Source of the DNA: Candidatus Saccharimonadota bacterium
GTDB lineage: Bacteria > Patescibacteriota > Saccharimonadia > Saccharimonadales > UBA4665
Assembly (NCBI GenBank): GCA_002952755.1
Contig: CP025011.1
Location: 840,001-872,000, forward strand
Direction of reading: 5' to 3'
Length of the DNA stretch: 32,000 nucleotides
A model generated the notes under the pieces. It was given only the letters and a program-made list of their open reading frames with translations, was not told the origin of the DNA and did no database searches. Made by a program: the position numbers and the translations under genes. This document shows positions 3,451 through 24,843 of the stretch, in pieces (position 1 is the stretch's first letter; each line of letters starts with the position of its first letter).

Positions 3451-4143
3451 CTAGAAGCTAACTGTACTTCGCTTATCTTTTTTCATTTGCTGATAGAGGT
3501 AGCATCCTGCACCAATAGCCCAGATCGCAACTCCATACCCAGCTACACGCTCCCAACCGCCATATCCAAGGACCATATAAGGCGGTTTTCCATCCATAAG
3601 AGATCCAAATATCCCAAGTGACCCGATGAAGACAGTCCACCGGCCAAACCATTTCCATACTTTTTTGGCAGCAATACCTAGCAAGATAAGACTTACGTTG
3701 AGGGCAGAAATTGCCAGCCCGCCGGATATGCTGTGTAATGTAGGCGCTAGATTGAGGGGCGAAAAGCCAGCAACTACTGCTTCAATACCTCCAAAGAACA
3801 TCAGCACAAGACCGCTCCGCCTGAATCGACCTTGCGGCCAAAGAAAAAGCAAACCAAGGCTGACACCAAGCATAAGGAGTACTCCATATGCTACAAATGT
3901 TCCGTCCATTACTAGATGCAACGGCGCGCAGACGTGCACCATCTCCTGCGTGGCATACTCTTTATATGGTCCACAAGCTGTAATGCCAAGATCACTAATG
4001 GCCTGATGTTTCATGCTATACGGTTGGGTGGTAGTGAACTGGGTAATAAACTGCCCGAGAAAAAACACTACACCAGCTGCTATAAGGCATAAGAGACCTT
4101 TTGTTATGATATTCGTTGGCGCCTCTAAGTATTTTGGCCTCAT
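3451..4143 (-). CDS. Polytopic membrane protein, DUF998-like
   Basis: 230-aa ORF with about 6 hydrophobic spans. The ISDLG..CGP....C.PLH motif after TM1 matches my recollection of DUF998. The family assignment is tentative. Confidence 0.6.
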   Translation of the reverse strand: MRPKYLEAPTNIITKGLLCLIAAGVVFFLGQFITQFTTTQPYSMKHQAISDLGITACGPYKEYATQEMVHVCAPLHLVMDGTFVAYGVLLMLGVSLGLLFLWPQGRFRRSGLVLMFFGGIEAVVAGFSPLNLAPTLHSISGGLAISALNVSLILLGIAAKKVWKWFGRWTVFIGSLGIFGSLMDGKPPYMVLGYGGWERVAGYGVAIWAIGAGCYLYQQMKKDKRSTVSF

Positions 4144-4158: not shown

Positions 4159-4186
4159 CTATTATAGTACGTTCGTACTATAATAG
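4159..4186. promoter_or_regulatory. Perfect 13-bp inverted repeat, a candidate TetR operator
   Basis: CTATTATAGTACG-tt-CGTACTATAATAG. It lies between the divergent starts at 4143 (minus) and 4203 (plus). Confidence 0.6.
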
Positions 4187-4866: not shown

Positions 4867-5442
4867 TCATTGATACTTAGTCATGCTAGGTACGAGCTCT
4901 CTAAGTGCAAGCTCGGCCAGTATGGCGTCGACATTCTGCTCAACCGTGTGCTTAGTGGTTTCGAGAATGACCTCAGGGGCAAGCGGAGGTTCGTACGGAT
5001 TACTCTCATGAACGCCAGTGAGGTTGTGCAGTTCACCCGCACGCGCCTTCTGGTATAAGCCTTTGGTGTCGCGCTCTTCACAGACTGCCAGCGGCGTGGC
5101 AATGTGCACTTCCAAAAACTGGCCCTTAGCGAACTTTGTGCGCACCCTGTCCCGTGTTACACGATAAGGACTTATCAATGCACAAACGGCGATGCCACCC
5201 CCATAGACGATTTGCGAGGCATCATGCCCAACGCGCAGCACATTTCTATCGCGATCATCACGGCTAAAACCAATATTTTTCCATCTTCTTACAACATCAC
5301 CATCAAGCAGAGAAACATCACGCCCTTCCGCTCTAAGCCTATCCCATAGTAATGCAGCAGTCGTGGTCTTACCCGAGCCGCTTAAGCCCGTAAACCAAAC
5401 GCAAAAGCCAGAGGTTTGATTACCCCCTTCGAGGCGACTCAT
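4867..5442 (-). CDS. cysC: Adenylylsulfate (APS) kinase
   Basis: 191 aa. Motifs: P-loop FTGLSGSGKTT, LDGDVVR, FSRDDRDRNVLR, ISPYRVTRD, RDTKGLYQKARAGE..LTGV..PYEPP. This is the canonical APS kinase motif series. Confidence 0.9.
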   Translation of the reverse strand: MSRLEGGNQTSGFCVWFTGLSGSGKTTTAALLWDRLRAEGRDVSLLDGDVVRRWKNIGFSRDDRDRNVLRVGHDASQIVYGGGIAVCALISPYRVTRDRVRTKFAKGQFLEVHIATPLAVCEERDTKGLYQKARAGELHNLTGVHESNPYEPPLAPEVILETTKHTVEQNVDAILAELALRELVPSMTKYQ

Positions 5443-5534
5443 CTTTTTATAATCATTTCTATAAGGACTTTACGACTTAGCGGCATACTCCACGCATACA
5501 CCTTTATACATAGCTCCTCGCATCATATACAGGT

Positions 5535-5551
5535 TAGCAAATAATTTGCTA
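5535..5551. promoter_or_regulatory. 17-bp perfect palindrome in the divergent cysC/sulfotransferase promoter region
   Basis: TAGCAAAT-a-ATTTGCTA, located in the 169-bp gap between the starts at 5442 (minus) and 5612 (plus). Confidence 0.4.
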
Positions 5552-5611
5552 TGCTTACCAAAATAAATTATACGCTATCGGCGCGAGCCAATGGACGCGT
5601 AAAAAAGAAGG

Positions 5612-6469
5612 GTGCAGATGAGATATTCGGAAACAAGTAGGTCATCTCAAAACAATGAACCGAAACGCCTTGTCGCCGGATTTCGCAAGACAGGACGAAC
5701 ATGGATGCGTTTTATGCTTGCTGCCGGGCTTTTAGACACATATCCCATAGATGGGTTGGATGTGGACAGTTTAAGCTTAGCCAACGCATACACTGTGGTG
5801 CCAAACGACAAGATTGGAGCAGGGCGCGTATCTGGTCAGCCCACGTTCCAGTACCAAGGCCGCATGCCTCTGATTGAAATGACACACGAACCACATAAGA
5901 AGCCGCATAGCACCAGATTCGAGGACGCCCGAGTCGTTTTCATGACGCGCGACCCACGCGATATCATGGTTTCAGGCTGGTTTCATGACACAAGACAGCT
6001 CGACGAGTTGCACGACAGATTTCATGGCGGCCTTAGCGAGTTCATCCGGAGTCCCCGGGGCATCGGCGATTTTGTTGCCCACCTTAATTCCTGGGCATAT
6101 AAACTTGACGATAGCCAAGTCTTAACATACGAAGCGATGCGTCAAGATCCAGCCGCTGCCCTGCAGAAAACAAACGAGCTGCTTGATATTGGCTTGTCGT
6201 CCCAAAGCATCTCGCACGCCGTAGAGGCTGGCCACATAGATAGAATGCGTAAGATCGAAGTAAGGGACGGTATTCCTGGCCATGACTACGACAGATCAGA
6301 TCCGGATGCGCTCCGTGTTCGTCGGGGAGTAGCCGGGGGTTTTGTCGACCATATATCTGAATCCGATCAAGCTTATATCGGCTCTGCGCTTACCGAATTA
6401 AACCCGAGAGCGTCGGGCATCGTCGCCATGACTGGCTACTTTGGTCCAGAAGCTCTCCAACAACTCTAG
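5612..6469 (+). CDS. PAPS-dependent sulfotransferase (small-molecule type)
   Basis: 285 aa. The 5'-PSB-like loop is RKTGRTWMRFMLA (compare PKSGTTW). The 3'-PB-like motif is FMTRDPRDIMVS. The start may be GTG 5612 or ATG 5618. Confidence 0.8.
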   Translation: MQMRYSETSRSSQNNEPKRLVAGFRKTGRTWMRFMLAAGLLDTYPIDGLDVDSLSLANAYTVVPNDKIGAGRVSGQPTFQYQGRMPLIEMTHEPHKKPHSTRFEDARVVFMTRDPRDIMVSGWFHDTRQLDELHDRFHGGLSEFIRSPRGIGDFVAHLNSWAYKLDDSQVLTYEAMRQDPAAALQKTNELLDIGLSSQSISHAVEAGHIDRMRKIEVRDGIPGHDYDRSDPDALRVRRGVAGGFVDHISESDQAYIGSALTELNPRASGIVAMTGYFGPEALQQL

Positions 6470-6608: not shown

Positions 6609-7346
6609 TTAATTTTTCTTGAGAACTGCTACTACTGAACTACCAAAGGGCAGCCTATACTTTTTGTGCAGTCGCGCTTCGGCATACAACATATGAGTCA
6701 GCAATCGATTGACCCACCCAGGCACCCCGACATACGACGTTTTCTCTCTCTTGCCAAAATACTTATCGAGTATACGAAATCCCGCAACCAATGGAAACGA
6801 AAAAGCAAAGGCATACGAAATGGTATGGACCTGCAAACCTGCCGACTGAGCCACAGTTTTAAGAGTCCTTTTAGTATAACGGCGCTCATGTCCCAACGCT
6901 ACATCATGGTGTGACCACAGCCATTGGTAAGCTGGTACGGTAATAATTAGGACGCCATCGTCTTTTAAGATCCGCGACCACTCTTGCAATGCAGCTTTAT
7001 GCATGTCTATGTGCTCGAGTATGTCAAATGCTGCCACCATATCGTACGTCTTGGCTCGAAATGGCAGCTTATTGTTGTTATCTGTTTTGATTATATTCTC
7101 AATGCCCTGGAGCTTCATGATAGCTATTGCTTCGTCGGAAACTTCGACATTCTCTACGAGTCCATAACGTCTGAGAAGAGAGACAGTACCTCCCGTCCCG
7201 CTGCCGACATTCAAGATTTTCATCTGCTGCCGCTGCCGAACATCGCAAAAGGAAACAATGTATGCCTCAATAATTCGTAGTCGGCCTATATGCCACCAAT
7301 AGGTTTTTTCGCGCAATGCTAAAGTAGCATATTCGTCTGTATGCAT
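6609..7346 (-). CDS. Class I SAM-dependent methyltransferase
   Basis: 245 aa. Shows YWWHIGR near the N-terminus, motif I ILNVGSGTGG, and FDILEHI. Confidence 0.85.
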   Translation of the reverse strand: MHTDEYATLALREKTYWWHIGRLRIIEAYIVSFCDVRQRQQMKILNVGSGTGGTVSLLRRYGLVENVEVSDEAIAIMKLQGIENIIKTDNNNKLPFRAKTYDMVAAFDILEHIDMHKAALQEWSRILKDDGVLIITVPAYQWLWSHHDVALGHERRYTKRTLKTVAQSAGLQVHTISYAFAFSFPLVAGFRILDKYFGKREKTSYVGVPGWVNRLLTHMLYAEARLHKKYRLPFGSSVVAVLKKN

Positions 7347-7392
7347 GATGTCCTAGAGTTATTCGGATAAGAAGGGTCCATTATACTACGTC

Positions 7393-8457
7393 CTAGGACC
7401 CATTTCTCGTCGCGGCGCTGCTTTGGTTAAAGCTTATCTGGTGGGCTCGGCCAAACACCCATTTGCCAACCTCTGAAAGTAGGGCGAGTATGTGTCCGCA
7501 TTCGGCTTCGCCTAACTGGCGTTGTCGTAGGTCAGCATGAGATGTGCGATCAAGATTGAAGGCTAGCCAAGCCAGGATACCACTAGCCCAATCGCTACAA
7601 TACACTTGATAGGTATCAAATACAGGAGAATAACCTGTGCGTTCTAAGTAGGCGCTTACTGCAGATACGATACGCTCTTCCGAGAGCTTGCCTTGACGTG
7701 CCAAAGACCAATCAATAGCTACCGTAAAAACGTCTTGCAAGGGGTCGGCTATCCAATTGGCGTTATCCCAGTCTACGAGTATGAGTCGGCTATCCTTTAG
7801 CAGAACGTTTTTGGCGGTGAGGTCCCGGTGTGATGGTACCGTAGGTCGTTTTCTATTCATCCTTTGCCAATTAGAGATAAGATTCTCAAACTGCTGAATG
7901 GTCCCCAGCCTCCGAAAAAGTAGATCGCTCCACGCGGGTCGTGCAGTGCTGTGTACATCGAGCCATTGACTCCACTGGATAGGATTATATGTGGCCGTTC
8001 GGTATTGATCCGGAGGCTTTACGCCCATGCGGTGAATACGTCCTATTGTTTCTACTAGGTCGCCAAAGTTCGTAAGCTTCCCTTCGCTAGCGGGCGTACA
8101 CCCCTCCATCCATCGATGCACACGCACAAAGTGCAGATCAGAAGTATGCAATGTGAGGGGCGCAAGGACTTCAGAACTGTGCGGCAAAAAGATTACCTCC
8201 GGGGTAAGGATGCCGACACTAGGTGCAAGCCTTTCGATGGCGCTACTGGTTTCGATATGATTTTTAAAATTTGGCTCTTTGGCCTGCGAGACCATTTCTT
8301 TGATGGCGAAGTCGCCAAACTCAGTAGTACATCGGTATAGTCGGTGCAGTAAGCCGCCCGACACTGGTTCAGCACTACGTAATTGACCGAGACCAAAGCG
8401 TGCACTGGCAGCTTTTAATAATTCATAGGGTATTTGATCTTTGGCCTTAGCAGACAT
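7393..8457 (-). CDS. Phosphotransferase family kinase (aminoglycoside phosphotransferase / choline kinase fold)
   Basis: 354 aa. Catalytic loop HRDLTAKNVLL followed by LVDWDNA (Brenner motif plus DxD). The substrate is unknown. Confidence 0.8.
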   Translation of the reverse strand: MSAKAKDQIPYELLKAASARFGLGQLRSAEPVSGGLLHRLYRCTTEFGDFAIKEMVSQAKEPNFKNHIETSSAIERLAPSVGILTPEVIFLPHSSEVLAPLTLHTSDLHFVRVHRWMEGCTPASEGKLTNFGDLVETIGRIHRMGVKPPDQYRTATYNPIQWSQWLDVHSTARPAWSDLLFRRLGTIQQFENLISNWQRMNRKRPTVPSHRDLTAKNVLLKDSRLILVDWDNANWIADPLQDVFTVAIDWSLARQGKLSEERIVSAVSAYLERTGYSPVFDTYQVYCSDWASGILAWLAFNLDRTSHADLRQRQLGEAECGHILALLSEVGKWVFGRAHQISFNQSSAATRNGS

Positions 8458-8544
8458 GACTATCCTAGTAACAGCCTTAATACTTCTTTAAATCAACTCG
8501 CACATAAAAAAATGTAGGATGCTAACGAAGCTGCCAATAAATAA

Positions 8545-9396
8545 TTAGGCCTCTGGCCCCTTGCGCGCGTAATACTGCATGTCGAGCCATCGACTCTCGT
8601 TGATTTCAAATCGATCCGCTGTCAGTACGCGTGCTCCGGCCGATGCCAGCAATGTGCGCACTTGCTCTGGCGGCATGCAGTGCATCTCCATGGGCGCTGG
8701 GTATCGCAGCACTAACCGCTGTCCTGTTGCTAGCACCCAGCGTGGCGCCCACCGAAACAGCATTCCTCTCATAGTCCAGGCTGTACTGGCAGGAATGTGG
8801 AATACCGCAATCCCACCTGGCTTGAGCACCCTGATGAAATCTGTCAGATAGACTTGACTGAACCGAACCGGCATATGCTGCAACACCATACTACTGTAGA
8901 CAAAATCGAAGGAGTCGTCGTCAAACATCGCTAAATCAGCGCGTTCATTGCGCACGAACCGGCACCATTGCCTCTTCGCCTCCTCCTCAGCAGCCGCACG
9001 TGCCAGCGCCAGCATCCGTTCACTGACATCAACCCCAACCACTTCGTCGAATCGTTCAGCTAGAGGAAAAGTGAGCCGACCAACTCCACACCCAAAGTCC
9101 AGCGCTCGCTCGCGCTTAGGCTCCAGCCCCAACTCGATAGCTCTTCTCAGCACGGTCGCAATCTCTTGCTCACCGGTCGCATAGAAGGCGTCACGGTCCC
9201 ACCGGTTACCCTTCTTGCCTGGCTGTGCACAAACCGCCCACAAAGGATCCTCGCTGGCCAAGCGATTCCACGCCTCGCTGATTTGCTCTAGCCTCGCAGA
9301 CATCAACGCACGCCTATTTGTAACAGAAAAAATGATCTCCCCCATCCGGCTGTAGGCAAGGTCAGTATCGACGATCCGTCCATCAAAGCTCGCCAC
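8545..9396 (-). CDS. Class I SAM-dependent methyltransferase
   Basis: 283 aa. Shows motif I ALDFGCGVGRLT, VGVDVSERML, FDFVYSSMVLQHM and KPGGIAVF. GC is visibly higher than in the neighbouring genes. Confidence 0.85.
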   Translation of the reverse strand: MASFDGRIVDTDLAYSRMGEIIFSVTNRRALMSARLEQISEAWNRLASEDPLWAVCAQPGKKGNRWDRDAFYATGEQEIATVLRRAIELGLEPKRERALDFGCGVGRLTFPLAERFDEVVGVDVSERMLALARAAAEEEAKRQWCRFVRNERADLAMFDDDSFDFVYSSMVLQHMPVRFSQVYLTDFIRVLKPGGIAVFHIPASTAWTMRGMLFRWAPRWVLATGQRLVLRYPAPMEMHCMPPEQVRTLLASAGARVLTADRFEINESRWLDMQYYARKGPEA

Positions 9397-12431: not shown

Positions 12432-12513
12432 ACAACTCCTCTTCATTGGACGTTAAGGCAATGAGTGATCTGAATAACCTCATCTTTAACGGCAGGTAGA
12501 TCTGAAGATTTAA

Positions 12514-12888
12514 CTATCGTTCGCGATGGGATGCAGTAGCGGGGTGGGGGCTGCTAAGTTTATGCTGAATCTGAGCGGCTAATTCAGCTAGATGGGTCTG
12601 TTTAGTTTTAATCTCCTCTAGCTTGGCTCTCAGTGCTGCACGACCAGTGGCAGTGTTAAGAGTCCCGGCCTGGTATGCTTCAGCCAACGGCTTCATCTCT
12701 GACAACTTAAAACCTAAAGATTGCATAGTCTTGATGCCCTTTATCATCTCGACAGCTTCTTCGTCGTATACAGCATATTGTGCTGATCCTGCATTTTCGT
12801 ATGTGCATTGGATAAGACCATACCGAGTATACAAACGAACCGCATCCTTACTGACGCCACTGAGTCGCGCAACTTCACCTATCTTCAT
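12514..12888 (-). CDS. MerR family transcriptional regulator
   Basis: MKIGEVARLSGVSKDAVRLYTRYGLI is the MerR HTH, followed by a C-terminal coiled coil. The track start at 12960 adds an implausible extension that would overlap the divergent gene, so ATG 12888 is preferred. Confidence 0.85.
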   Translation of the reverse strand: MKIGEVARLSGVSKDAVRLYTRYGLIQCTYENAGSAQYAVYDEEAVEMIKGIKTMQSLGFKLSEMKPLAEAYQAGTLNTATGRAALRAKLEEIKTKQTHLAELAAQIQHKLSSPHPATASHRER

Positions 12889-12912
12889 AAAAATCTTCTT
12901 GACTATTGACTT

Positions 12913-13782
12913 ATGTCTATAGTTTACCGTTACGGTATGAAAGATACAAGACAGCCACACACCAAAGTCATACTAATAACCGGTTGCGCCACAGGAGTAG
13001 GGCATGCTACGGCGCTCGCATGCGTAAGGGCAGGGTATATTACCTACGCTACCGGCCGTAATCTTAAGGAACTACGCGATCTCGCCGCGGCCGGCTGCCA
13101 CACGCTTGAGCTCGACGTAACAAGCGAAAACTCACGCGTCCAAGCCGTGCAAGCCATTCTGGCAAAACATAAAACAATAGATATCTTAGTTAATAACGCA
13201 GGATATGGCCAAATGGGTGCGATCGAATTGATCAGCTTGGACCAGATCCGTCGGCAGTTTGAAACGAACGTATTTGGAGTGTTGCGCCTGTGCCAGTTGG
13301 TAATGCCCCGCATGCGTCAATCGGGCAAGGGCACCATAGTAATCGTCGGCTCCATGGGGGGACTTGTCACGACGCCGTTTATGGGAGCGTACCATATGAG
13401 CAAATACGCAGTTGAATCACTGGCCGATGCCCTGCGTCGTGAAGCAAGTGGTTTTGGAATACGAACCATCTTACTGGAACCAGAAGCAATTAAATCAAAT
13501 TTTGGAAATACGACTCTTGCTTCTGTGAGCAGGGGAGATACTCCTTATACAGAAACGCAGAAGCGTATTAGTCAGATAACCGCCAAATCATATATGAGCC
13601 CACGCTTACTTACACCAGAGCGCGTTGCAGACAAAATTATTAAAGTTACGGCTAGTAAACACCCGAAAGCCAGATATCGTATCGGCGTGCAGGCACACAT
13701 TATGCCAGCGCTCTTTCACATTATGGGAGACCGCCTAACCGATAAACTGTGGCATAACATCATAAAGCCAAAAAACGGATAA
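12913..13782 (+). CDS. Short-chain dehydrogenase/reductase (SDR)
   Basis: Shows ILITGCATGVGHA (TGxxxGxG), NNAG, and YHMSKYA (YxxxK). The start may instead be ATG 12937. Confidence 0.9.
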   Translation: MSIVYRYGMKDTRQPHTKVILITGCATGVGHATALACVRAGYITYATGRNLKELRDLAAAGCHTLELDVTSENSRVQAVQAILAKHKTIDILVNNAGYGQMGAIELISLDQIRRQFETNVFGVLRLCQLVMPRMRQSGKGTIVIVGSMGGLVTTPFMGAYHMSKYAVESLADALRREASGFGIRTILLEPEAIKSNFGNTTLASVSRGDTPYTETQKRISQITAKSYMSPRLLTPERVADKIIKVTASKHPKARYRIGVQAHIMPALFHIMGDRLTDKLWHNIIKPKNG

Positions 13783-13864
13783 AGCACTTAGTCCATACCA
13801 ATTAATTTTCCAGTAGCAGAATTCGAGGTAAAACCAATACTTCAAATGGAGGCGTACTAGCCGT

Positions 13865-14344
13865 CTAGCGATCTTTTCCCACCGTAATCGAAGCCATCTC
13901 GTCAATATGCCAGGACTGTACTGCCGTAAGTGGCAACTTCTGCCCGGAGCGATAGTCGTCAATAGCTTTGAGGATGGTGGGCGCTCGAAGCTTGCCAGCT
14001 TTCCCGAGTGCAACAATTTGCTCATAGGTTAGTGCTTCAATGACGTCATGCTCATCTGAGTGAAAAACAGTATCACTTGGGGTGCTACCAGCAAATATAG
14101 TGAACAATACATTACTGCCAGTAGCAATAACGGTTTGGTATATTCCCACCAGACATTCAAGTGTTATAGCTGCACCAGTTTCTTCTTTGGCTTCACGGGT
14201 TATGCATTCGATGAGGTCTTCGCCGACTTCAAGTGTACCGGCTGGCAGATTGTACAACTCTGCTTTTTCGTGGCGCACTTCTTTAATGAGGACGAAGTTG
14301 TCGCCTTGCGTGAGGATAAGACCGGCGCCAATGAAAAAGGGCAT
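13865..14344 (-). CDS. NUDIX hydrolase
   Basis: Nudix box GTLEVGEDLIECITREAKEETG. ATG 14344 (MPFFIGAG) overlaps the upstream TAA by 1 nt (TAATG) and has GGAG upstream, so I prefer it to the track start at 14371. Confidence 0.85.
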   Translation of the reverse strand: MPFFIGAGLILTQGDNFVLIKEVRHEKAELYNLPAGTLEVGEDLIECITREAKEETGAAITLECLVGIYQTVIATGSNVLFTIFAGSTPSDTVFHSDEHDVIEALTYEQIVALGKAGKLRAPTILKAIDDYRSGQKLPLTAVQSWHIDEMASITVGKDR

Positions 14345-14613
14345 TAGTTTTGTCTCCGTTTCATCCACCATTGTTTCAGATCACCTACAACCAGCGTTGA
14401 AAGCAAGAAGCCCGTCGGCGGCACAAGGGCATCAACAAAAGGCTTGCTGCTGCCAATGGCAAACAAGAATAGTACCACCACAATATAGGTTACAAACATA
14501 ATAACCGACTTACGAACCAGACTACCTTCCCAGGCTTTATCCATTTCGACCCTTTTGTTGCGAGCTTCGAGAGCAGCGATGCGACTCTTAAGTTGTTCGA
14601 GTTCAGATTGCAT
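14344..14613 (-). CDS. Small protein with an N-terminal coiled coil and two hydrophobic spans
   Basis: 89 aa. Reads ELEQLKSRIAALEARNKRVE, then two TM-like segments. No family recognised. Confidence 0.55.
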   Translation of the reverse strand: MQSELEQLKSRIAALEARNKRVEMDKAWEGSLVRKSVIMFVTYIVVVLFLFAIGSSKPFVDALVPPTGFLLSTLVVGDLKQWWMKRRQN

Positions 14614-14749
14614 GGCGTAAGTATACTTTATAACGGCGGCTAATTGCTAATACTGCTAGCAGGCTATCTAGTTTTGGGCCGATCTTTAAACAATCCGGCT
14701 GTTATTTGACTCGTAGTCAAGTAGAAAGATTATGAGAATGGGTGGGGGG

Positions 14750-15277
14750 TTATAAGTTGCAGGCCCGTAATATGTCATCCACTACTTTATCAAGAGGTCG
14801 GCGTACATCAATAATCACTGCGCCGTAATCTCTGTAACGATCCTGAAATGAGTCATGCCAGCCTAGGATGCTCTCAAGTTCATCGGGCGCCTTGCCAAAA
14901 TCATGATCAGTACGGCTGGCGATTCTATGTCGCAGTGTTTGCTTGTCGAGAACAAGACATATCACTGTATCGTACAAATCCAGCATGTCATCGCCATTTT
15001 CAGGTGAGCCGCATAAAAAGATAGGTTTGTTTTTGGCACGTTCGGCAAACTCCTCAGCCTTCTGTCTCGACATTTGCCATTCGTGTTGCTCGTACCATTC
15101 TTTCGTACGGCTATTTTCGTCTTCTGAGCGTTCAATCGGTTTGCCGGTTGCCTTGTCAAACCAGGTTGTAATGCCGTCGTCATCTGTGTCGTGGGCTTCG
15201 TAGCCGCGACGCTGTAATTCTTTACGCACTGTGGACTTGCCAGCTCCTGAGTTGCCGGTGATATAAATGAGAGGCAT
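14750..15277 (-). CDS. P-loop NTPase / small-molecule or nucleotide kinase-like protein
   Basis: MPLIYITGNSGAGKST is a Walker A motif. ATG 15277 has GGAGG 9 nt upstream and overlaps the upstream TAA (TAATG). Confidence 0.75.
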   Translation of the reverse strand: MPLIYITGNSGAGKSTVRKELQRRGYEAHDTDDDGITTWFDKATGKPIERSEDENSRTKEWYEQHEWQMSRQKAEEFAERAKNKPIFLCGSPENGDDMLDLYDTVICLVLDKQTLRHRIASRTDHDFGKAPDELESILGWHDSFQDRYRDYGAVIIDVRRPLDKVVDDILRACNL

Positions 15278-16017
15278 TAAATTACCTCCACCTCGGCCCA
15301 AACTGGCAAATGATCTGAATATTCGGTCTGCAGAATCTCGCTCCGTAGTACATTTACGTCTGTACTAGCAAAGATATAATCCAGCCGCCAGTTGAGTTCT
15401 GTTTCTTCAAAGCCGTTGTACGAGAATGGTTTTGTTGTCCAGGTCTTTTGGCTGAAGTCCGGGCCTGCGTGCTGGAGAAGCTTTTGAACTTTTTGAAGTG
15501 TTGGTGAGTCCGGTGTAACATTAAGATCACCCGTAAAAATGAAGTTGTGCTGCTTGGATTTGAGAATAGCTGCGAGCTTGTCAGCTTCTTGCTCTTTACG
15601 TGGGGTATTCACAAACCTGTCGGTGTAGGACATATGCGTCGTGCCGACGGTAAGCTGGTGCGTATCATCAATTTGCAGTGTCATTTCAATGTAGCTACGG
15701 TATTCGTCGTCAAAGCCGTTCGTGCCTACGGGTTCATTAATGTAGTGGAAACACTTATCTACTATGGGGAATCTGGCGAAGATGGCGTTGGCCTGAAGCC
15801 AAGAACCATCTGGTAAAGGCATACCTTGCCCGTAGTGCCGGTAGCCAAGTGTACGAGCGATATACTCAACAGTATCGGGTTCGTTCTGCTGATAACCATT
15901 GGTAAGCTCTTGCAAGCAAATGATGTCTGCCGGATGTGCTTTTAAGAATGCGGCAATATTACGGATATCTTCTTTGTACCAGATATTCCACTGCAGGATT
16001 GAGATAGTTTGACTCAT
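15277..16017 (-). CDS. Endonuclease/exonuclease/phosphatase (EEP) family protein
   Basis: 246 aa. Shows ILQWNIW...ADIICLQE, GDLN and SDHLPV, which are EEP catalytic motifs. Confidence 0.85.
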   Translation of the reverse strand: MSQTISILQWNIWYKEDIRNIAAFLKAHPADIICLQELTNGYQQNEPDTVEYIARTLGYRHYGQGMPLPDGSWLQANAIFARFPIVDKCFHYINEPVGTNGFDDEYRSYIEMTLQIDDTHQLTVGTTHMSYTDRFVNTPRKEQEADKLAAILKSKQHNFIFTGDLNVTPDSPTLQKVQKLLQHAGPDFSQKTWTTKPFSYNGFEETELNWRLDYIFASTDVNVLRSEILQTEYSDHLPVWAEVEVI

Positions 16018-16580
16018 AGTAAACTCTCCAATTCTTGCTTTGCTTGCTCAAACGATCGGTACTGAACTGCTTTCATTCCAGTCGTAACAGCAGCATCACA
16101 ATTGCTCTTTACATCGTCGATCATGACCGCCTCGTCTGGTTCAACACTCAACTTATCGCAGGTCAGTTTAAATATCTCCGGATCGGGCTTAGCGTAGCCT
16201 GTACTGCCAGAGAGAACTACAACATCAAATAGGTCACTTCTTTCTTGCTCAGTAAAGAACCCCTCCATCATGTCGGCACCGATATTGCTAAGCAGCGCGA
16301 TCTTGTAGCCTTTGCGTAGTTCTTTTACGTAAGCGACCAATTCGTCGTTACGAACATGACCTTGGAAAAAGCGGTCTTCGATTTCTTGGGGAGTCAGCCC
16401 GAGTAATTCGCTCGCCTGCGTGATAAGGCCAGCCTTTGACAGTGTACCGCGTGCAGCTTGCTCGTCTAGATTATGCAAGGCTTCAGCTTTATCTTTTGGT
16501 GAACGCGGGTCGCGCATATAGGCAAAGACCGGATCAACGTAAAAGACTCCGAAGCAATCGAAGACGAGGGCTGTAATCAT
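16014..16580 (-). CDS. HAD superfamily hydrolase
   Basis: 188 aa. Shows LVFDCFGV (motif I region), LLSN, KPDPEIF and IDD. Confidence 0.8.
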   Translation of the reverse strand: MITALVFDCFGVFYVDPVFAYMRDPRSPKDKAEALHNLDEQAARGTLSKAGLITQASELLGLTPQEIEDRFFQGHVRNDELVAYVKELRKGYKIALLSNIGADMMEGFFTEQERSDLFDVVVLSGSTGYAKPDPEIFKLTCDKLSVEPDEAVMIDDVKSNCDAAVTTGMKAVQYRSFEQAKQELESLL

Positions 16581-16891
16581 TTTAATTCTACCTGAATCGT
16601 TTGCACTTCATTAGTGCCAATGTTCTCAACAGCATGGGAGATTTCAGGTGATGATGTAACCTGTCCTTCCTCTAAATCTACGTCCGCTACGGTACCATCT
16701 GGCTTAATAAAACGAAGCCTACCAGAAGAAAGAATGTAATTGATATTTTCGGGGTGCCAATGCATGTTAGCCTTATCACCGGGTCGAACAGTTACCCTCA
16801 GTACGCGCATCTTGTCGTTTTCAAAAATGACTTTGTGAAGATGCGGCGCAATGCTGACTGCATCGTCAGTGTGGTCTGATATATTACTCAC
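16577..16891 (-). CDS. Cupin domain protein
   Basis: 104 aa. Shows HWHPE.. and a second His-containing strand. GTG start within a GTGA overlap. Confidence 0.7.
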   Translation of the reverse strand: MSNISDHTDDAVSIAPHLHKVIFENDKMRVLRVTVRPGDKANMHWHPENINYILSSGRLRFIKPDGTVADVDLEEGQVTSSPEISHAVENIGTNEVQTIQVELK

Positions 16892-17568
16892 TGTTTAATT
16901 TCCTTTTCCCACGACAAAGCCTGCACTTCTTCAATGAGTGCTTTTGCGAGTCCACTATGCGCTTCCTGACTAAAATGAATCCCGTCGTCTCCGGCATGAG
17001 CTACTTGAGCGGTGTCAACGAAGGAACATTCCATGTTGCTTGCCACTCTTTGTAGCTCAACGCTCAGCGCTTGTGACTTTAAGGCTGATTCGTGGTCGTA
17101 GAAGTCTGGCACATAGAATTTAGCAAAGGTTGGTGCTTGATCATCAACCAGGATAGGACTAACCAGTATTATCTTTGCGGGGTTGCCATCACCTTGCGCT
17201 GTTTTGCGTTGGATGATTGCAATAAGCCCCTCGATAGCTTCCGCAATATCCTGAACACTTCGATTAAATTCAGTCTTTAAATCATTTGTTCCAAGCATGA
17301 GGATGACCATGTCGAGTGGCATATGACTATCCAGGCAGGGTTCAAGGTAGGTTTTACCGTTGCGGCCTGGTTCGCGATCGTAGTCCAGATCAGTTGTGCG
17401 GCCGCTGAGTCCTTCTTCGATAACGTAGTAGTCTTCGCCTAAAGCTTGTTGCAATAGCCCTGTCCAACGAACGTTGGCGGGAAAACGGCCAGATTTATCT
17501 GGCTTTTGGCCCCAGGTGTTGGAGTCTCCGTAGCAGAGGATGGTTTTGGGGGTAGGGTTGGTGATCAT
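16888..17568 (-). CDS. SGNH/GDSL hydrolase (esterase/lipase-like)
   Basis: 226 aa. Shows block I ILCYGDSNTWG, block III GTND, and block V DGIHF. Confidence 0.85.
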   Translation of the reverse strand: MITNPTPKTILCYGDSNTWGQKPDKSGRFPANVRWTGLLQQALGEDYYVIEEGLSGRTTDLDYDREPGRNGKTYLEPCLDSHMPLDMVILMLGTNDLKTEFNRSVQDIAEAIEGLIAIIQRKTAQGDGNPAKIILVSPILVDDQAPTFAKFYVPDFYDHESALKSQALSVELQRVASNMECSFVDTAQVAHAGDDGIHFSQEAHSGLAKALIEEVQALSWEKEIKQ

Positions 17569-18026
17569 CTATTTTTCTCCCAGTCTCGCACGACATAAAG
17601 CGCGTTGGTCTCTAGCTCTAATACATGTATATACTCAATATTTTGTGCAAAGGCTTTTTGTAAATCACTGGTTGCGACAATATTATTCTCGTAATAGCTT
17701 TCATCTACTTCGCTTTTTCGAATTGCATATACGATCTTTCGTATACCCGCCCAGTAGGCAGTAGCAAGGCACATAAGGCAGGGTTCCATAGAGGTGTACA
17801 GAACTGCACCCTCGAGATTTCTATGAACCAGTTCAATGGCATTTTCAATTGCATGTACTTCGGCATGGCGAAAGTCATGAGTATCACCACTCATGCCAGA
17901 CACTATTGGTGGCTCGCCAAGATAGCTCGCGGCGACGATTGCGCCGGCAGGAAATCTGCCTTGCTTAGCAGATTCTTTGGAGCGCATTATTGCCATCTTT
18001 AAGTAGTCTGTGTCATCTGATTTCAT
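17565..18026 (-). CDS. Cytidine/deoxycytidylate-type zinc deaminase (nucleoside, nucleotide or base deaminase)
   Basis: 153 aa. Shows HAEVHAI and PCLMC (the H-A-E / PCxxC zinc motifs). Confidence 0.85.
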   Translation of the reverse strand: MKSDDTDYLKMAIMRSKESAKQGRFPAGAIVAASYLGEPPIVSGMSGDTHDFRHAEVHAIENAIELVHRNLEGAVLYTSMEPCLMCLATAYWAGIRKIVYAIRKSEVDESYYENNIVATSDLQKAFAQNIEYIHVLELETNALYVVRDWEKNR

Positions 18027-18586
18027 AACAATTGCTTTTCCTCCATAATTTCGATAAGTTTTGGAAATGCCGAATACTCCTGACTCTGCTCAAGGTTAAA
18101 ATGTCCTTGGTTTGGGAGGACGAGCATCTGCGCTTTGCAATGGTCGGCCACAAACTGCGCTTGCTTAAGCGGTACGTATGGGTCGGTATCGGAATGGACG
18201 AATAAGAGCCTGTCCACGTTTTCTCGAATTGCTTGCCATTCAAATGGGACGTCAAACAAGCTATTGTTTGCCTCCCATTTAAGCGAGTTATCGTGAAAAA
18301 CAGAAACGGCAACAATGCCGCCAATCTTGGCCTTGCTTTCTTGAGCTAGAATGAGCGCAAGAATAGCGCCGCTGGAATGCCCAACAATAAGCGTGTCTTC
18401 GTCAATTGGGAATGGGCAACTTGCATACACATAGTCAGCTTCGGCGCGAAGGGACGGCTGCTCGGGGTGTGGTAGCTGCGGGAGCCAAACAAACAGCCCT
18501 TTGGCCTCTAGTTCACCCTTGAGCCATTGGAACCAGTTGCCGTTAGGCGAACCCATGGTGCCGTGAAGGATGACAGCGTTTTTCAT
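18023..18586 (-). CDS. Alpha/beta serine hydrolase, YdeN/RBBP9-like
   Basis: 187 aa. Shows ILHGTMGSPNGNWFQWL, nucleophile elbow VGHSSGA, D..VP and GHF. Confidence 0.75.
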   Translation of the reverse strand: MKNAVILHGTMGSPNGNWFQWLKGELEAKGLFVWLPQLPHPEQPSLRAEADYVYASCPFPIDEDTLIVGHSSGAILALILAQESKAKIGGIVAVSVFHDNSLKWEANNSLFDVPFEWQAIRENVDRLLFVHSDTDPYVPLKQAQFVADHCKAQMLVLPNQGHFNLEQSQEYSAFPKLIEIMEEKQLL

Positions 18587-19191
18587 GCATTCTCCTTACT
18601 CAAATGCTCGTGCACAATCTGCCAATCACCATTTATCCTTTTTAAGACATTCGTACCTTTACCCTCGTAAACTTGCCGCTTAATATACCGCACTGCTTCT
18701 TCAAGATTCGACTGTAATTCATTGGCAGTATCGACCTTCAGCGTTTGCTCCTTCCATGGAGTGTAGGCTTTACGTCGTTCTTCGACTCTCTCCCAAGTTA
18801 CTTCCGGCAGACCATGCAGGCTCCTGACACGTTCTTCGATACGTTTTTTGTGAAGAGCCGTGTCGCTGGTGGCGCATTCGATAATAATCAAAGTGGCATT
18901 TTGCTTTTTGGCAAGCTCCCGCCAGACACCTTTTGCTTCTTCCTCGGCATTGACGGCATCGATCACGACCGAGCTACCGAGTTTGAATTGCTCAGTAGCC
19001 AGGGATTCGGCAACAAGATAAGCTGCATAGCCTGTTTCGAAGCTCTTTTCTATACCAGATCTAATAATTGCTGACTCGATGGGATCAACAGAAAATAGCG
19101 GCAAACGTAGCTTCTTGGCCACCGCTTCAGCAAGGGTACTTTTGCCGCTGCCGGGCAGGCCAGAGAGGAGGATAAGGTTGTTTTTTGTCAC
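18583..19191 (-). CDS. P-loop kinase (AAA_33-like) with a short NTF2/SnoaL-like C-terminal tail
   Basis: 202 aa. Walker A LSGLPGSGKST. GTG start within a GTGA overlap. The tail VLKRINGDWQIVHEHLS resembles the last strand of SnoaL/DUF4440 proteins. Confidence 0.75.
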   Translation of the reverse strand: MTKNNLILLSGLPGSGKSTLAEAVAKKLRLPLFSVDPIESAIIRSGIEKSFETGYAAYLVAESLATEQFKLGSSVVIDAVNAEEEAKGVWRELAKKQNATLIIIECATSDTALHKKRIEERVRSLHGLPEVTWERVEERRKAYTPWKEQTLKVDTANELQSNLEEAVRYIKRQVYEGKGTNVLKRINGDWQIVHEHLSKENA

Positions 19192-19895
19192 GCCGCGATA
19201 CCCGTCACATTACCTGCCATGTCAGTCTGATATACTCCTTTGGATAAATCTACCAATGTAAGTTTGTTGCCGAACGGATCCTCGACAAGAGCGACTTTAC
19301 CAACCGGAATATCTTCAAGCGGCATTAGTATCTTGCCGCCTGCGCGTTCAAACACAGCGGCCGCATGCTCGGCCGATTCGACTAGAAAATCGGTTTCCGG
19401 GTCAAGTTTGGTACTGAGCACTAACTCGCTCTCGCCTAAGCGCACGGCTGCCATGTCTTCTTTTCTCCAAACAGTTTGCATACCAAGCTGTTCACGGTAA
19501 AAATCTAATCCTTCTTGGATGCTCGGCACTTTTACGAGTATCGCGTCTATTTTCTTGAGCACCGGTACGTCGTCGAGTCGAGTATCGGCTGTTATCTTCT
19601 CGCCAATTGCTATGTGGCGAAGTGCAATATCAACTCCTCGTTCGTGATCAAGCACCACATTTGGCGATTCGGAATGGTTTACATACCGTGCCAGTCCGCC
19701 TTCAAAAAGATAGATCTGTCCATTGATATTATGTGCTGCTAAGTATCGTTCTGATGGCAGTGCTTTTAGTTCTTTAAAACTTATAGGCTTAAAATCAATG
19801 CTTACAACCACTTCGCCCTTTTTAAACTCGCGGGCAGCGTAGATGGCCTTACCATTCATGAGCCCTTGGCCGATGGTTACGTCGGTGGTGTTCAT
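19188..19895 (-). CDS. SET-domain protein fused to a VOC (glyoxalase/bleomycin-resistance fold) domain
   Basis: N-terminal half: AAREFKKGEVV..ARYVNHSESPN..IAIGEKIT (SET motifs). C-terminal half: ILVKVPSIQEGLDFYREQLGM...VALVEDPFGNKLTLVD (VOC). ATG 19895 has GAGGAG upstream and forms an ATGA overlap with the upstream stop. Confidence 0.8.
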   Translation of the reverse strand: MNTTDVTIGQGLMNGKAIYAAREFKKGEVVVSIDFKPISFKELKALPSERYLAAHNINGQIYLFEGGLARYVNHSESPNVVLDHERGVDIALRHIAIGEKITADTRLDDVPVLKKIDAILVKVPSIQEGLDFYREQLGMQTVWRKEDMAAVRLGESELVLSTKLDPETDFLVESAEHAAAVFERAGGKILMPLEDIPVGKVALVEDPFGNKLTLVDLSKGVYQTDMAGNVTGIAA

Positions 19896-20338
19896 TTGGT
19901 CTCCTCTGGTGCTGGTACATCCGTAATCCAAAGCTTACTCTTATCGTCCGGGTTGCCATAGTTATAGTTCACGGTAATTTCTTCGCCGGGCTGAATGGCT
20001 TTAAGCGCGGTAAAAGTGATGGTCTTTTCGGTCAGGTTCTTTTTATAAGTGGCATTTGGTTCGTAGGAGTGATTGTAGAGTGAACCGAACCCCAGGCAGA
20101 TGACCACTGGTTTTTGGCCTTCAGTTTTTTCGCTCTCTTGATCCCAAATGAAGTAATAATTGCGCAGATGTGTCGCTTTGATGTGATCGTAATCTTGGGC
20201 GGCAAGCTCAAGGATGGGACATGTTTCGATTACTTCGCCTTCAGTAATATCCGCAGCAGCAAACATTCCGCGACCCGCGTTTTCAATGCGGGAATCGGCA
20301 AGATAAATTTTGGATGGTGGGGTGATGGGTTCGGTCAT
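19892..20338 (-). CDS. SET-domain protein (putative lysine methyltransferase fold)
   Basis: Shows ENAGRGMFAAADITEGEVI, GSLYNHSYEPN and IQPGEEITVNY. ATG 20338 is preceded by GAGGAGGA. The track's N-terminal extension to 20452 is unlikely. Confidence 0.85.
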   Translation of the reverse strand: MTEPITPPSKIYLADSRIENAGRGMFAAADITEGEVIETCPILELAAQDYDHIKATHLRNYYFIWDQESEKTEGQKPVVICLGFGSLYNHSYEPNATYKKNLTEKTITFTALKAIQPGEEITVNYNYGNPDDKSKLWITDVPAPEETK

Positions 20339-20486
20339 TACAAATCCTCCTCGGCAATAAGCGGCGTTATCTCTACAAATCAAAGCTCTTCTTTTGGCCG
20401 TCAATCCACCCGTAACATAGCGCCTCATCCAGAACACCGGCGTAACTAACAAGGGGAACGCCCGAGGTCTCAGTTTTCATCTTATT

Positions 20487-20495
20487 ATTATAGCA
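20487..20495 (-). promoter_or_regulatory. Candidate extended -10 element (TGCTATAAT) for the SET-led operon
   Basis: The minus strand reads TGCTATAAT about 150 nt upstream of ATG 20338. There is no good -35 element. Confidence 0.3.
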
Positions 20496-20566
20496 AAAAG
20501 CCCTGTGCAAGGATTATTGGATAGACGAAAAATAGTTCCGCTTAATTCGGTGCATTTTGACGATTA

Positions 20567-20881
20567 CTATAAGCGGGCAGGAATCTCAAAAACATCTCTC
20601 ACACCCTCGCTTTTTAGCTTTTCAGGCGTCACTAAGTCTTCCAAAATGATACTCTGTCCCAGTCGCAGCAGTGTCAAGCCATGCGAATATAGGCGCCTAT
20701 CAAGTTTATGACGAAACTCGTCGTCCCAGAAGTCGACACCGAGTGCCGCAACCCATTCGTCTACGTTGAGTCTGATGGCGCCTGTCGACTTCTCCAGTTC
20801 TCTGGCGGCAGTAGATTTACCGGCGCCAGGCAGGCCGCAAAAGGCATAGAGTACTGGCCGTTCATTGGTCTTCAATATCAT
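20567..20881 (-). CDS. P-loop NTPase (AAA_33-like), apparently C-terminally truncated
   Basis: 104 aa from ATG 20881 (GGAG upstream). Walker A FCGLPGAGKST. The protein ends about 25 aa after ..IILED, whereas the two paralogous kinases in this window are 175 and 202 aa. Confidence 0.6.
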   Translation of the reverse strand: MILKTNERPVLYAFCGLPGAGKSTAARELEKSTGAIRLNVDEWVAALGVDFWDDEFRHKLDRRLYSHGLTLLRLGQSIILEDLVTPEKLKSEGVRDVFEIPARL

Positions 20882-20900
20882 AGTAAATCTCCAAATCATA

Positions 20901-20940
20901 AACCGGGCAGTAGGCGCACATTGTCGCACACTGCCCGGTT
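20901..20940 (-). promoter_or_regulatory. Perfect 11-bp-stem hairpin in the 5' leader of the 20881 gene
   Basis: AACCGGGCAGT-(18 nt)-ACTGCCCGGTT. On the minus strand it is followed by TATGATTTGGAG (the RBS) and the ATG. Confidence 0.45.
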
Positions 20941-21214
20941 TAGATTAAGAAATAAGAGATAGCAATAGCAAAGCTACGCAAGGTAAGCGCGACAACTTAG
21001 TTATTGGTGTATGTAGCCATATAATTACTGTATCAGTATATTAAGCTTATGTCAATAATGCGTAGCATTTGTCTTTTCATGATACTTATGGTAATATAAG
21101 ATGACTAATCCAAGGAAAATACACCAGTGATAGATATCATCAACAGCTAAGAACGTTGGCACAACACCAGTCTAGCTTTGCTATTGATGACTTTTCTATC
21201 AGTTAAACCCTTGT

Positions 21215-21270
21215 AAAAGACCGAGCAGTTGTGTGGCGTTTATCGTCAATATTGCTCGGTCTTTTAGTTT
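21215..21270 (+). terminator. Intrinsic terminator / attenuator immediately upstream of the ABC-F start
   Basis: AAAAGACCGAGCA-(25 nt)-TGCTCGGTCTTTT-AGTTT. The GC core stem is a perfect 9 bp, extendable through A/U pairs. GGAG at 21271 and ATG at 21280 follow directly. Confidence 0.65.
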
Positions 21271-21279
21271 GGAGTTTTT

Positions 21280-22761
21280 ATGTTTGCCTTGCAACACATA
21301 CAAAAATCGTATGGCGACAAAATCATACTTTGCGACAGTAACTTCGCAGTTAACGAGGGCGAGGTAATTGCTCTAATCGGCGAAAACGGCGCTGGCAAAT
21401 CGACTCTGCTCCAAATCATTTTGGGCAAAGTTCAACCAGATAGTGGAAGCGTTGCGCTTCACCAGGAAACGATTGGCTATGTGCCACAAAAGACCAATAC
21501 CGATCAAACTATAAAGACGTTTTTTGATGCAGACGTCGACCCGTGGCGTATAGATTACGCGCTTACTATAGTAGGCCTTAGCGGGGTGGTGGATAATTCA
21601 CCTGTCAAAGCACTTAGTGGTGGTCAGAGAACTCGGTTGGCATTAGCAAGTGTACTAGCACAGAACCCTGAGCCCACAGTGCTGTTACTTGATGAACCTA
21701 CCAACAATCTCGACACTGAAGGGCTTGTATGGCTAGCCGAATTTATTCGGTCGTTTCGTGGTGCCATCGTATTAGTATGTCATGACCGTAACTTCATTAA
21801 TCAGGTCGCTACTGGTGTTGCCGAACTACGGAATGGCAAATTGCGTCACTACGGGGGTAATTACGATTTCTACAAAGAACAGCGTGCCATCGAGCATGAA
21901 GCTGAGAGAAGGCGTTACGCTCGCTACCTTACCGAGAAGAAACAACTTGAACAGGCTATCTCAGCCCAGCGAGAAAAAGGCCAACACGCACACAAGCATA
22001 TTAAGCGTAGCGACAACGACAAATATCAGCGGGATTTTTTCCGTAATAGAGTTACTGTTAAACTTGGCCAACAGGCTAGGGCACTCGAGACTCGCCTTGG
22101 CCAGCTTGAGGACGTTGAACGACCTGAGAGCGTTCGTAACTATGGACTAAAACTAAGCGGCACTGCCAATAATGAAAAGTTACTTTTACGCTTGAGCGAT
22201 ATCAATAAGTCTTTCGGCAATAATGTTCTAAGTAATATTAGTCTTGAGATAAGAGGTAGTGAGCACGTACACATAAGCGGTCATAACGGCGCTGGTAAGA
22301 CTACACTACTAAAGATGGCGGCAGGATTACTTGAGCCGGATAGCGGTGAACAGATTTTAGGCAGTGACGTACGGATTGGCTACTTTTCGCAAGACGTAGA
22401 CAGCCTTAGTTATACTCACACTGCACTCGAGAATTTGCAGTCCACCGCTGCGTCACCTACCGACATTTTCCGTGAAGCCAGGAGCCTCGGTTTAGATAGA
22501 CAAACCTTGCAGAAACTTCCAGGGCAACTGTCTCGTGGCCAGCAGGCTAAACTTGGCTTCGCAAAGCTGCTGCTAAATTCTAATCACCTACTCATTTTGG
22601 ACGAGCCGACCAACCACCTGGATATTTCTACACGTGAGCAGATTGAAGCCGCGTTATTGTCCTACCATGGGGCGCTGCTATTTGCTTCACATGACCGTTA
22701 TTTTTCAGACGCAATGCAGCCAACGAAAACACTGCAATTGACTAACGGAAGGTTGCACTAA
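21280..22761 (+). CDS. ABC-F family ATPase (two ABC domains, no TMD; translation factor or ribosome-protection type)
   Basis: 493 aa. First domain: GENGAGKST / LSGGQRTRLALA / LLLDEPTNNLD. Second domain: GHNGAGKTT / LSRGQQAKLGFA / LILDEPTNHLD. A charged linker of about 80 aa joins them (RRRYARYLTEKKQLEQ...). Confidence 0.9.
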   Translation: MFALQHIQKSYGDKIILCDSNFAVNEGEVIALIGENGAGKSTLLQIILGKVQPDSGSVALHQETIGYVPQKTNTDQTIKTFFDADVDPWRIDYALTIVGLSGVVDNSPVKALSGGQRTRLALASVLAQNPEPTVLLLDEPTNNLDTEGLVWLAEFIRSFRGAIVLVCHDRNFINQVATGVAELRNGKLRHYGGNYDFYKEQRAIEHEAERRRYARYLTEKKQLEQAISAQREKGQHAHKHIKRSDNDKYQRDFFRNRVTVKLGQQARALETRLGQLEDVERPESVRNYGLKLSGTANNEKLLLRLSDINKSFGNNVLSNISLEIRGSEHVHISGHNGAGKTTLLKMAAGLLEPDSGEQILGSDVRIGYFSQDVDSLSYTHTALENLQSTAASPTDIFREARSLGLDRQTLQKLPGQLSRGQQAKLGFAKLLLNSNHLLILDEPTNHLDISTREQIEAALLSYHGALLFASHDRYFSDAMQPTKTLQLTNGRLH

Positions 22762-22923
22762 AAGAAGTACTATAAGGGATTGACCCCCCTACAATCCAGT
22801 AGTAAGCTTGTAGCATGTCAAATATAGAGACTGTCAGATTTGATACCGTACCCTCGCACTTTCTCGGCTTACACTTTCATAGACTATAGATTAGACTGTC
22901 CTGTCATCTTATGAGGACAAATT

Positions 22924-22951
22924 AAAAAATCCAGACTTGAAAACAAGCCTG
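22924..22951 (-). terminator. Rho-independent terminator after the FAD monooxygenase gene
   Basis: The minus strand reads CAGGCTTG-TTTT-CAAGTCTG-GATTTTTT. The stem is 8 bp with one G:U pair, and it sits 10 nt past the stop at 22961. Confidence 0.7.
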
Positions 22952-22960
22952 AAGATTCGT

Positions 22961-24175: not shown

Positions 24176-24179
24176 ACAT

Positions 24180-24815: not shown

Positions 24816-24843
24816 GACCAAACTTTACTACATCTGAGACAAA

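Follow-up and report, generated by a model that had tools for sequence, protein, structure and literature searches.

Several described systems make 3'-phosphoadenylyl sulfate (PAPS) for sulfation rather than for reduction, namely NodPQ with NodH in rhizobia, RaxPQ with RaxST in Xanthomonas, and the cassettes of the candidate phyla radiation (CPR) in which Sat and CysC, sometimes with CysQ, accompany a sulfotransferase. These cassettes include a sulfurylase and usually a phosphatase for adenosine 3',5'-bisphosphate (PAP), they belong to glycan or Nod loci, and their sulfotransferases are of the carbohydrate or peptide type. Teg12, Teg14 and StaL (PDB 3mgb, 3nib and 2ov8) are bacterial cytosolic-type PAPS enzymes of another kind, used by actinomycetes in small-molecule tailoring, and the eukaryotic cytosolic sulfotransferases (SULT1/2, plant SOT16/18) likewise have small-molecule acceptors. 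In a window of 32,000 nucleotides (the whole stretch of DNA analysed; positions 840,001 to 872,000 of contig CP025011.1) from a Candidatus Saccharimonadota bacterium, a stand-alone gene for a predicted adenylyl-sulfate (APS) kinase, cysC, stands divergent from a gene for a sulfotransferase of this small-molecule type. The logic is like that of the Nod, Rax and CPR cassettes, but the locus is not a glycan locus and the window genome has no ATP sulfurylase of its own, so that the pair is not a complete Sat, CysC, sulfotransferase and PAP phosphatase cassette. We consider it probable that the two genes form a sulfation module dependent on APS from outside, likely scavenged from a host cell. The enzymes are ordinary; what is unusual is a pathway cut at its first step in the closed, near-complete genome of an obligate-partner bacterium.

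The window genome is a single contig of 1,450,269 bp (49.9% G+C, 46 tRNAs, one 16S gene) with an estimated completeness of 98.5%; it is placed in the class Saccharimonadia, and the nearest named sulfotransferase homologue likewise comes from a Saccharibacteria metagenome-assembled genome (MAG). A sequence-only reading of the window had noted the lack of a sulfurylase within the 32 kb, and this lack extends to the whole genome: there were no genome-wide matches to ATP sulfurylase (Sat, PF01747), to PAPS_reduct (PF01507, which covers CysD and CysH) or to sulfite reductase (PF01077), while the controls were matched in 5/14, 14/14 and 11/14 genomes, respectively. A tblastn search of the genome with a Saccharimonadia Sat-CysC fusion recovered the kinase part only and no Sat part, and a family search whose positive controls were matched found no SulP sulfate transporter. 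Genome-wide, neither sat/cysDN nor PAPS reductase was found, and there was no complete assimilatory cys operon. As far as homologues can be detected, sulfate assimilation is thus excluded and the module plays no part in it; where APS comes from becomes a question for the whole genome. These results support the earlier proposal that PAPS is made here for sulfation and not for assimilation. The search for TLC nucleotide transporters gave no match in the window genome but none in any control genome either, and is hence uninformative. An unpublished genome (G156) entered family tallies such as this one only, and none of our conclusions depends on it.

The CysC protein is predicted to be a canonical APS kinase from its full motif set and family scores. 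It matched PF01583 with an E-value of 5e-50 (169.8 bits; cut-off 21.1) and lay above the cut-off of the equivalog-domain model TIGR00455 (187.1 vs 138.7 bits). The top NCBIfam match was the kinase domain of the bifunctional Sat/CysC family PRK05537 (220 bits), and the closest PDB match was residues 370-536 of the Aquifex aeolicus SAT/APS kinase (2gks; E 9e-51), aligned end to end; this kinase domain is the nearest solved and curated relative. The P-loop and the LDGD, FSxxDRxxN, SPY and KGLY motifs all align with 2gks, as the strings GLSGSGKTT, LLDGDVVR, GFSRDDRDRNVLR, ISPYR and TKGLYQKA. Unlike the Aquifex enzyme, the window CysC consists of the kinase domain only, without a PUA or Sat domain and with no remnant of either adjoining the gene. 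Genome-wide family searches found one true APS kinase and one Sulfotransfer_1 gene, and these are the two genes of the window.

The sulfotransferase matched PF00685 (Sulfotransfer_1) with 64.7 bits (cut-off 22), so that both of the families assigned in the sequence-only reading, and both gene positions, were borne out. Its open reading frame can be read from a GTG (5612-6469, plus strand, 285 aa), but the ATG at 5618 is probably the start, being favoured by a Shine-Dalgarno-like GAAGGG at 5607-5612 and by the invariance of M3 in the homologue alignment. The public gene call (P0001, 254 aa) starts at M32 and is disfavoured because the 5'-phosphosulfate loop KTGRTW would be cut off. Conservation was read in an alignment of the 11 closest homologues, in which K26-T-G-R-T-W, H92, S121, R237, G239, G242 and G243 are invariant and R113 is nearly so; the K26 loop, H92, R113/S121 and the C-terminal RxGxxGG motif (R237/G239/G242/G243) all align to Teg12 equivalents. 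By motif, the K26 loop would bind the 5'-phosphosulfate, H92 would be the catalytic residue, and R113 and S121 would bind the 3'-phosphate. The two PAPS-binding motifs quoted earlier, RKTGRTWMRFMLA and FMTRDPRDIMVS, are both present. The enzyme thus looks active, and the retention across the subfamily of R113, S121 and R237/G239, which bind the 3'-phosphate, predicts that its donor is PAPS rather than APS, which would give CysC its job.

Structure prediction was in line with this assignment. An AlphaFold2 model built on 17 homologues had a pLDDT of 82.9, and its top Foldseek matches were cytosolic SULTs (probability 1.00, TM-score about 0.6). The lid region (residues 220-240) carries a subfamily-specific GI[AP]GHxYDRxDP and was modelled with low confidence. 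A search of the ESM Atlas returned generic sulfotransferase clusters only. The best PDB sequence matches were Teg12 (1.6e-9) and Teg14 (9e-9); next came cytosolic SULTs of mammals, SULT1A/2A among them, and of plants, with StaL at 1e-3; by these matches, the predicted transferase is of the Teg/StaL/SULT small-molecule kind. With the eukaryotic enzymes it has the fold and the PAPS-binding architecture in common, but identity is 15-20%, and the window protein is bacterial and has its own lid region.

The resemblance to StaL and Teg enzymes noted in the sequence-only reading holds in that these are the closest solved relatives, but it is a family-level likeness and does not make the protein a member of the glycopeptide sulfotransferase group. 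The proteins are of similar length, and the alignment covers the 5'-phosphosulfate-binding loop, the catalytic histidine after a threonine (KTH in Teg12, MTH in the window enzyme), the 3'-phosphate-binding RDPRD..S block and the C-terminal RMRxxE block; the string quoted there, VLTYEAMRQDP...LLDIG...RMRKIE, does align with Teg12 VLTMRYEDLKGDP...FLDLG...RMRELE. Yet the match is remote (about 40 bits, E 1e-9 to 1e-3), and the hosts differ, a CPR epibiont here and actinomycetes for Teg/StaL. No nonribosomal peptide synthetase, cytochrome P450 or other glycopeptide or scaffold gene occurs in the 32 kb, and relatives of the window enzyme, unlike Teg/StaL, sit with a uridine-kinase-like kinase, a HAD phosphatase and a glycosyltransferase. 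We do not count the window protein in the glycopeptide group, given the remote similarity and the lack of a glycopeptide cluster.

The main argument that the two genes function jointly comes from the nearest relative. The sulfotransferase subfamily is small, with 17 proteins found in a collection of 5.8 billion. In a tree of 69 homologues, the window protein is sister (SH-aLRT 93) to one encoded on a 1.46-Mb metagenome contig (Ga0207654_10000002, locus L030), within a clade of eight (SH-aLRT 97) that includes a protein from a Saccharibacteria MAG (L007). The L030 contig and the window genome have in common a divergent tRNA-Arg(gcg)/tRNA-Ser(cga) pair, with tRNA-Arg identical at 77/77 positions. 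L030 also has a stand-alone cysC (58.5% identity to that of the window), 6.3 kb from the orthologous sulfotransferase (53% identity), and this is the only cysC near a clade sulfotransferase besides that of the window. Beyond these two genes, nothing is common to the two loci. That cysC and the sulfotransferase, at 53-58% identity, are all that has been kept argues that they work together and suggests that the pair has persisted through a long divergence.

The surroundings of the sulfotransferase in L030 (L030:2300-16100) form a tRNA-Arg-flanked island, in a genome that is Saccharibacteria-like, with the look of a cluster for small-molecule biosynthesis. The gene order is cysC, an unknown gene, a PrnB-like heme enzyme, a GHMP kinase, a methyltransferase, a uridine-kinase (Udk)-like kinase, a group 1 glycosyltransferase (GT1) and a HAD protein, followed by the sulfotransferase, a second HAD protein, an unknown gene, a methyltransferase, a cupin, an FAD oxidoreductase and an Inositol_P phosphatase.

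In the seven clade relatives, the neighbouring genes point to an acceptor that resembles a nucleoside or glycoside, a small molecule that would be neither a glycopeptide nor a surface glycan. In 7/7 other clade members (e.g., L007:5240-6205, L008:7798-8715, L030:7206-8105; also L031-L034), the sulfotransferase has directly upstream of it, or within two genes, a uridine-kinase-like P-loop kinase some 300 aa long; this kinase is of the PRK/Udk family but scores far under the Udk cut-offs. Where the contig extends sufficiently, a HAD phosphatase, a glycosyltransferase and a conserved 375-aa protein without a family are further partners. The nucleoside-kinase-like protein, the phosphatase and the glycosyltransferase together suggest a sulfated nucleoside or glycoside metabolite as the product; in a lineage believed to be nearly without secondary metabolism, such a compound would be out of the ordinary. 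The genomes of L007 and L008, whose sulfotransferases are 45% and 42% identical to that of the window, have neither Sat nor a true CysC. As a side possibility, the uridine-kinase-like partner, present at seven other loci of which two are in CysC-less genomes, might itself be a non-canonical nucleotide-sulfate kinase.

In the reading that we favour, CysC would phosphorylate APS at the 3'-OH to give PAPS, and the divergently transcribed sulfotransferase would pass the sulfuryl group of PAPS on to some small molecule in the cytoplasm, at a hydroxyl (or amine), with release of PAP. PAP might then be cleared by one of two Inositol_P-family proteins encoded at 345 kb and 1152 kb, neither near the module; both score alike for HisN, CysQ and IMPase, always under the cut-offs, so their assignment is ambiguous, but either could serve. 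Because no known sulfate-activating enzyme is encoded, APS would have to reach the module by some way other than the known pathway, most likely by being scavenged and imported from the host cell. Cultivated members of the Saccharimonadia, a CPR class, are epibionts, and many Actinobacteria assimilate sulfate via APS; host dependence combined with this route would make host APS the most economical source. Cultivated Saccharibacteria are obligate epibionts of Actinobacteria and are without nucleotide synthesis (PMC10633639). On the protein side, both enzymes carry every cofactor and catalytic motif, and the fold of the sulfotransferase is confirmed by the model and the Foldseek matches. A working module would imply that an activated sulfate nucleotide is taken up from another cell, and sulfation would then join the functions that Saccharibacteria outsource to their hosts.

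A number of points weigh against this proposal. We know of no APS or PAPS importer in bacteria, and to our knowledge none has been described as taking up activated sulfate nucleotides from other cells. We infer that CysC and the sulfotransferase act together, but within the window their co-regulation and joint function are read from adjacency. The pair is rare, with no close sulfotransferase homologue in 400 other Saccharimonadia genomes, and none of the clade partners (the Udk-like kinase, HAD phosphatase, glycosyltransferase and 375-aa protein) was found in the window genome. Finally, the pair stands in a patchwork accessory region and could be a recently stranded fragment.

This last idea, in its full form, holds that the pair was left behind from a larger acquired island such as that of L030, or from a Sat-CysC cassette, and that the genes, with no APS to turn into PAPS, are decaying. 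The missing APS route, the absence of every biosynthetic partner of the seven clade relatives and the scarcity of both genes (APS kinase occurs in 3/151 Saccharimonadia genomes, and the sulfotransferase has no close homologue in the 400 others) are all as expected from it, and loss of Sat is compatible with a kinase that is nearest to the kinase domain of Sat-CysC fusions and 49-51% identical to the Saccharimonadia ones. A decaying remnant nevertheless seems unlikely to us, because both reading frames are intact with all catalytic residues present, the G+C content of the pair resembles that of the genome, so that the acquisition is not fresh, and the stand-alone cysC and orthologous sulfotransferase of L030, at 53-58% identity, imply long-term retention. 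Nor is there space for a Sat remnant, with the TetR gene 61 bp from cysC on one side and the sulfotransferase on the other. Slightly less likely again, in our judgement, is a hidden sulfate-activating enzyme unrelated to Sat/CysDN, such as a HIT/GalT-type ADP-sulfurylase working in the reverse direction or some unknown protein. Orphan APS kinases do recur, as in a 97% complete Patescibacteria genome (G265) that has CysC but neither Sat nor a convincing CysD. But the window genome has no homologue of the no-Pfam proteins beside that kinase and no SulP sulfate transporter, the window locus and L030 have just cysC and the sulfotransferase in common, and the reverse ADP-sulfurylase reaction is thermodynamically unfavourable.

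It is also conceivable, though improbable, that the genes are functionally unlinked, the sulfotransferase using scavenged PAPS directly, as its relatives in CysC-less genomes would have to, and the kinase having another purpose or substrate. The L007 and L008 homologues, at 42-45% identity, are encoded in genomes without a true APS kinase, and the kinase conserved across the clade is the uridine-kinase-like protein, not CysC. This separation is hard to square with a kinase that has the complete set of APS-binding motifs, scores above an equivalog-domain cut-off, is the immediate divergent neighbour of the sulfotransferase in the window and lies on the same island in L030; moreover, the window genome encodes nothing else that would use PAPS or APS. 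An assimilatory sulfate reduction pathway whose other genes lie away from the window would accord with the place of CysC in the PAPS route of enterobacteria, but we give it a negligible chance, since Sat, the CysD/CysH family and sulfite reductase are missing genome-wide with positive controls matched, which refutes it for detectable homologues.

Table 1. Positions, in the numbering of the window, of the gene pair, its intergenic elements and a nearby gene.
Feature	Position	Strand	Basis or remark
cysC, stand-alone APS (adenylyl-sulfate) kinase, 191 aa	4867..5442	-	PF01583, TIGR00455, PDB match 2gks
Cytosolic-type (Sulfotransfer_1) PAPS-dependent sulfotransferase, 283 aa	5618..6469	+	PF00685, Teg12/Teg14 matches, AlphaFold2 model and Foldseek
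Divergent intergenic region	5443..5617	.	169 bp to GTG 5612 (5443-5611); 175 bp to the likelier ATG 5618
Perfect 8+1+8 palindrome, 17 bp, TAGCAAATAATTTGCTA (TAGCAAAT-A-ATTTGCTA)	5535..5551	.	Candidate operator
Third, imperfect palindrome half-site, TAGCGTATAATTT, with perfect TATAAT facing cysC	5565..5577	-	Inverted repeat I2
DUF998 membrane-protein gene	3451-4143	-	

The divergent spacer had been given as 169 bp, which is right for the GTG start but falls short of the length to the likelier ATG. The 17-bp perfect palindrome reported within it is real and exact, and it is a candidate, unproven operator. It is the sole copy in the 1.45-Mb genome at up to two mismatches; perfect palindromes with 8-nt arms number 82 genome-wide, about 1 per 18 kb, so that to meet one within a spacer of 170 bp is unusual without being compelling. 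The 13 nt of inverted repeat I2 are 85% complementary to 5535-5547, and the TATAAT in this half-site is a putative cysC promoter element; a consensus promoter scan flagged no sigma-70 sites in the spacer.

On the other side of cysC lies a TetR gene, likely starting at ATG 4203, which is convergent with cysC across a spacer of 61 bp and divergent from the DUF998 gene. A perfect 13+13 inverted repeat, CTATTATAGTACG-TT-CGTACTATAATAG, occupies 4159-4186 in the spacer between the DUF998 and TetR genes; it resembles a classic TetR operator and has no sequence relationship with the palindrome between cysC and the sulfotransferase. Since the TetR gene has this different palindrome of its own, TetR is not the obvious binder of 5535-5551, and its candidacy is weakened.

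The window neighbours of the pair include the TetR regulator, methyltransferases, an APH-fold kinase and hydrolases. Around it (6609-9396 and 12500-27900), small-molecule-modifying and resistance-like genes form a patchwork, comprising two methyltransferases, the APH-fold kinase (weakly LxmK/GntI-like), a MerR protein, a short-chain dehydrogenase/reductase, a NUDIX protein, several P-loop kinases, an ABC-F protein, an FAD monooxygenase adjoining a second TetR gene, and an M20 peptidase. None of the patchwork genes recurs beside sulfotransferase homologues. A five-gene 'group-transfer cluster' (cysC, sulfotransferase, methyltransferase, APH-fold kinase, methyltransferase) was considered and dropped, as the three extra genes never recur there. 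A recent foreign origin of the pair by composition was likewise rejected, its G+C content of about 52%, vs 49.9% for the genome, being no anomaly.

To place the pair in its lineage, two samples were searched, one of 151 Saccharimonadia genomes (class sample) and one of 301 Patescibacteria genomes (phylum sample). In the class sample, APS kinase was found in 3/151 genomes, Sat in 2/151 and Sulfotransfer_1 in 13/151; both Sat genes are PUA-Sat-CysC fusions of about 575 aa, and the window genome is the only one with the kinase and no Sat. Ten of the 13 genomes with Sulfotransfer_1 have neither Sat nor CysC, so reliance on an outside supply seems common in the Saccharimonadia. A wider cross-feeding of activated sulfate, in which Saccharibacteria draw APS or PAPS from host cells, is a tentative extension that we regard as possible but doubtful. 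Were it true, most sulfotransferase-bearing Saccharimonadia (10/13 in this sample) would be PAPS auxotrophs, and the window genome would represent an intermediate state in which APS is imported and then completed to PAPS by an orphan kinase. Such a state would suit hosts in which, as in many Actinobacteria, APS and not PAPS is the intermediate of sulfate assimilation.

In the phylum sample, CysC matches occurred in 14/301 genomes and Sat in 10/301, nearly always adjacent or fused. Besides the window genome there are four exceptions: one has CysD beside a frame of CysN-CysC size, two are weak or fragmentary, and the fourth is the G265 genome, with a strong stand-alone CysC. This second orphan APS kinase in Patescibacteria (L135:7726-12580) lies in an operon with a pyridoxal-phosphate-dependent decarboxylase, two no-Pfam proteins (302 and 246 aa) and an aminotransferase; the operon might encode a sulfo-amino-acid pathway.

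A literature search on sulfotransferases, APS kinase or PAPS in Saccharibacteria or Patescibacteria turned up nothing on the topic. The genes sat, cysC and cysN were listed in CPR genomes by He et al. 2021, and were taken there as sulfate reduction (PMC7906910). In the CPR loci that we examined, sat and cysC lie beside sulfotransferases and therefore look better taken as sulfation modules. One Saccharibacteria, one Staskawiczbacteria and one Colwellbacteria locus have the order Sat, cysC and then, directly downstream, a distant sulfotransferase. The Saccharibacteria MAG (L026:52-2172, the same place as L019) encodes a 706-aa fusion of a pyruvate-kinase barrel, PUA_2 and ATP sulfurylase, followed by cysC and the sulfotransferase. 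Frames of similar length (749 and 752 aa) in the Staskawiczbacteria and Colwellbacteria MAGs (L027, L028) are probably like fusions, and the joining of pyruvate kinase to Sat is unusual. A complete sulfation cassette is present within a glycan locus of a genome from the same order as the window genome (L136:1845-13683, G077). Its genes run GT2, GT1, sulfotransferase, LPG_synthase_TM protein, PUA-Sat-CysC fusion, Inositol_P (CysQ-like), GT2, UDP-glucose dehydrogenase and nucleotidyl transferase.

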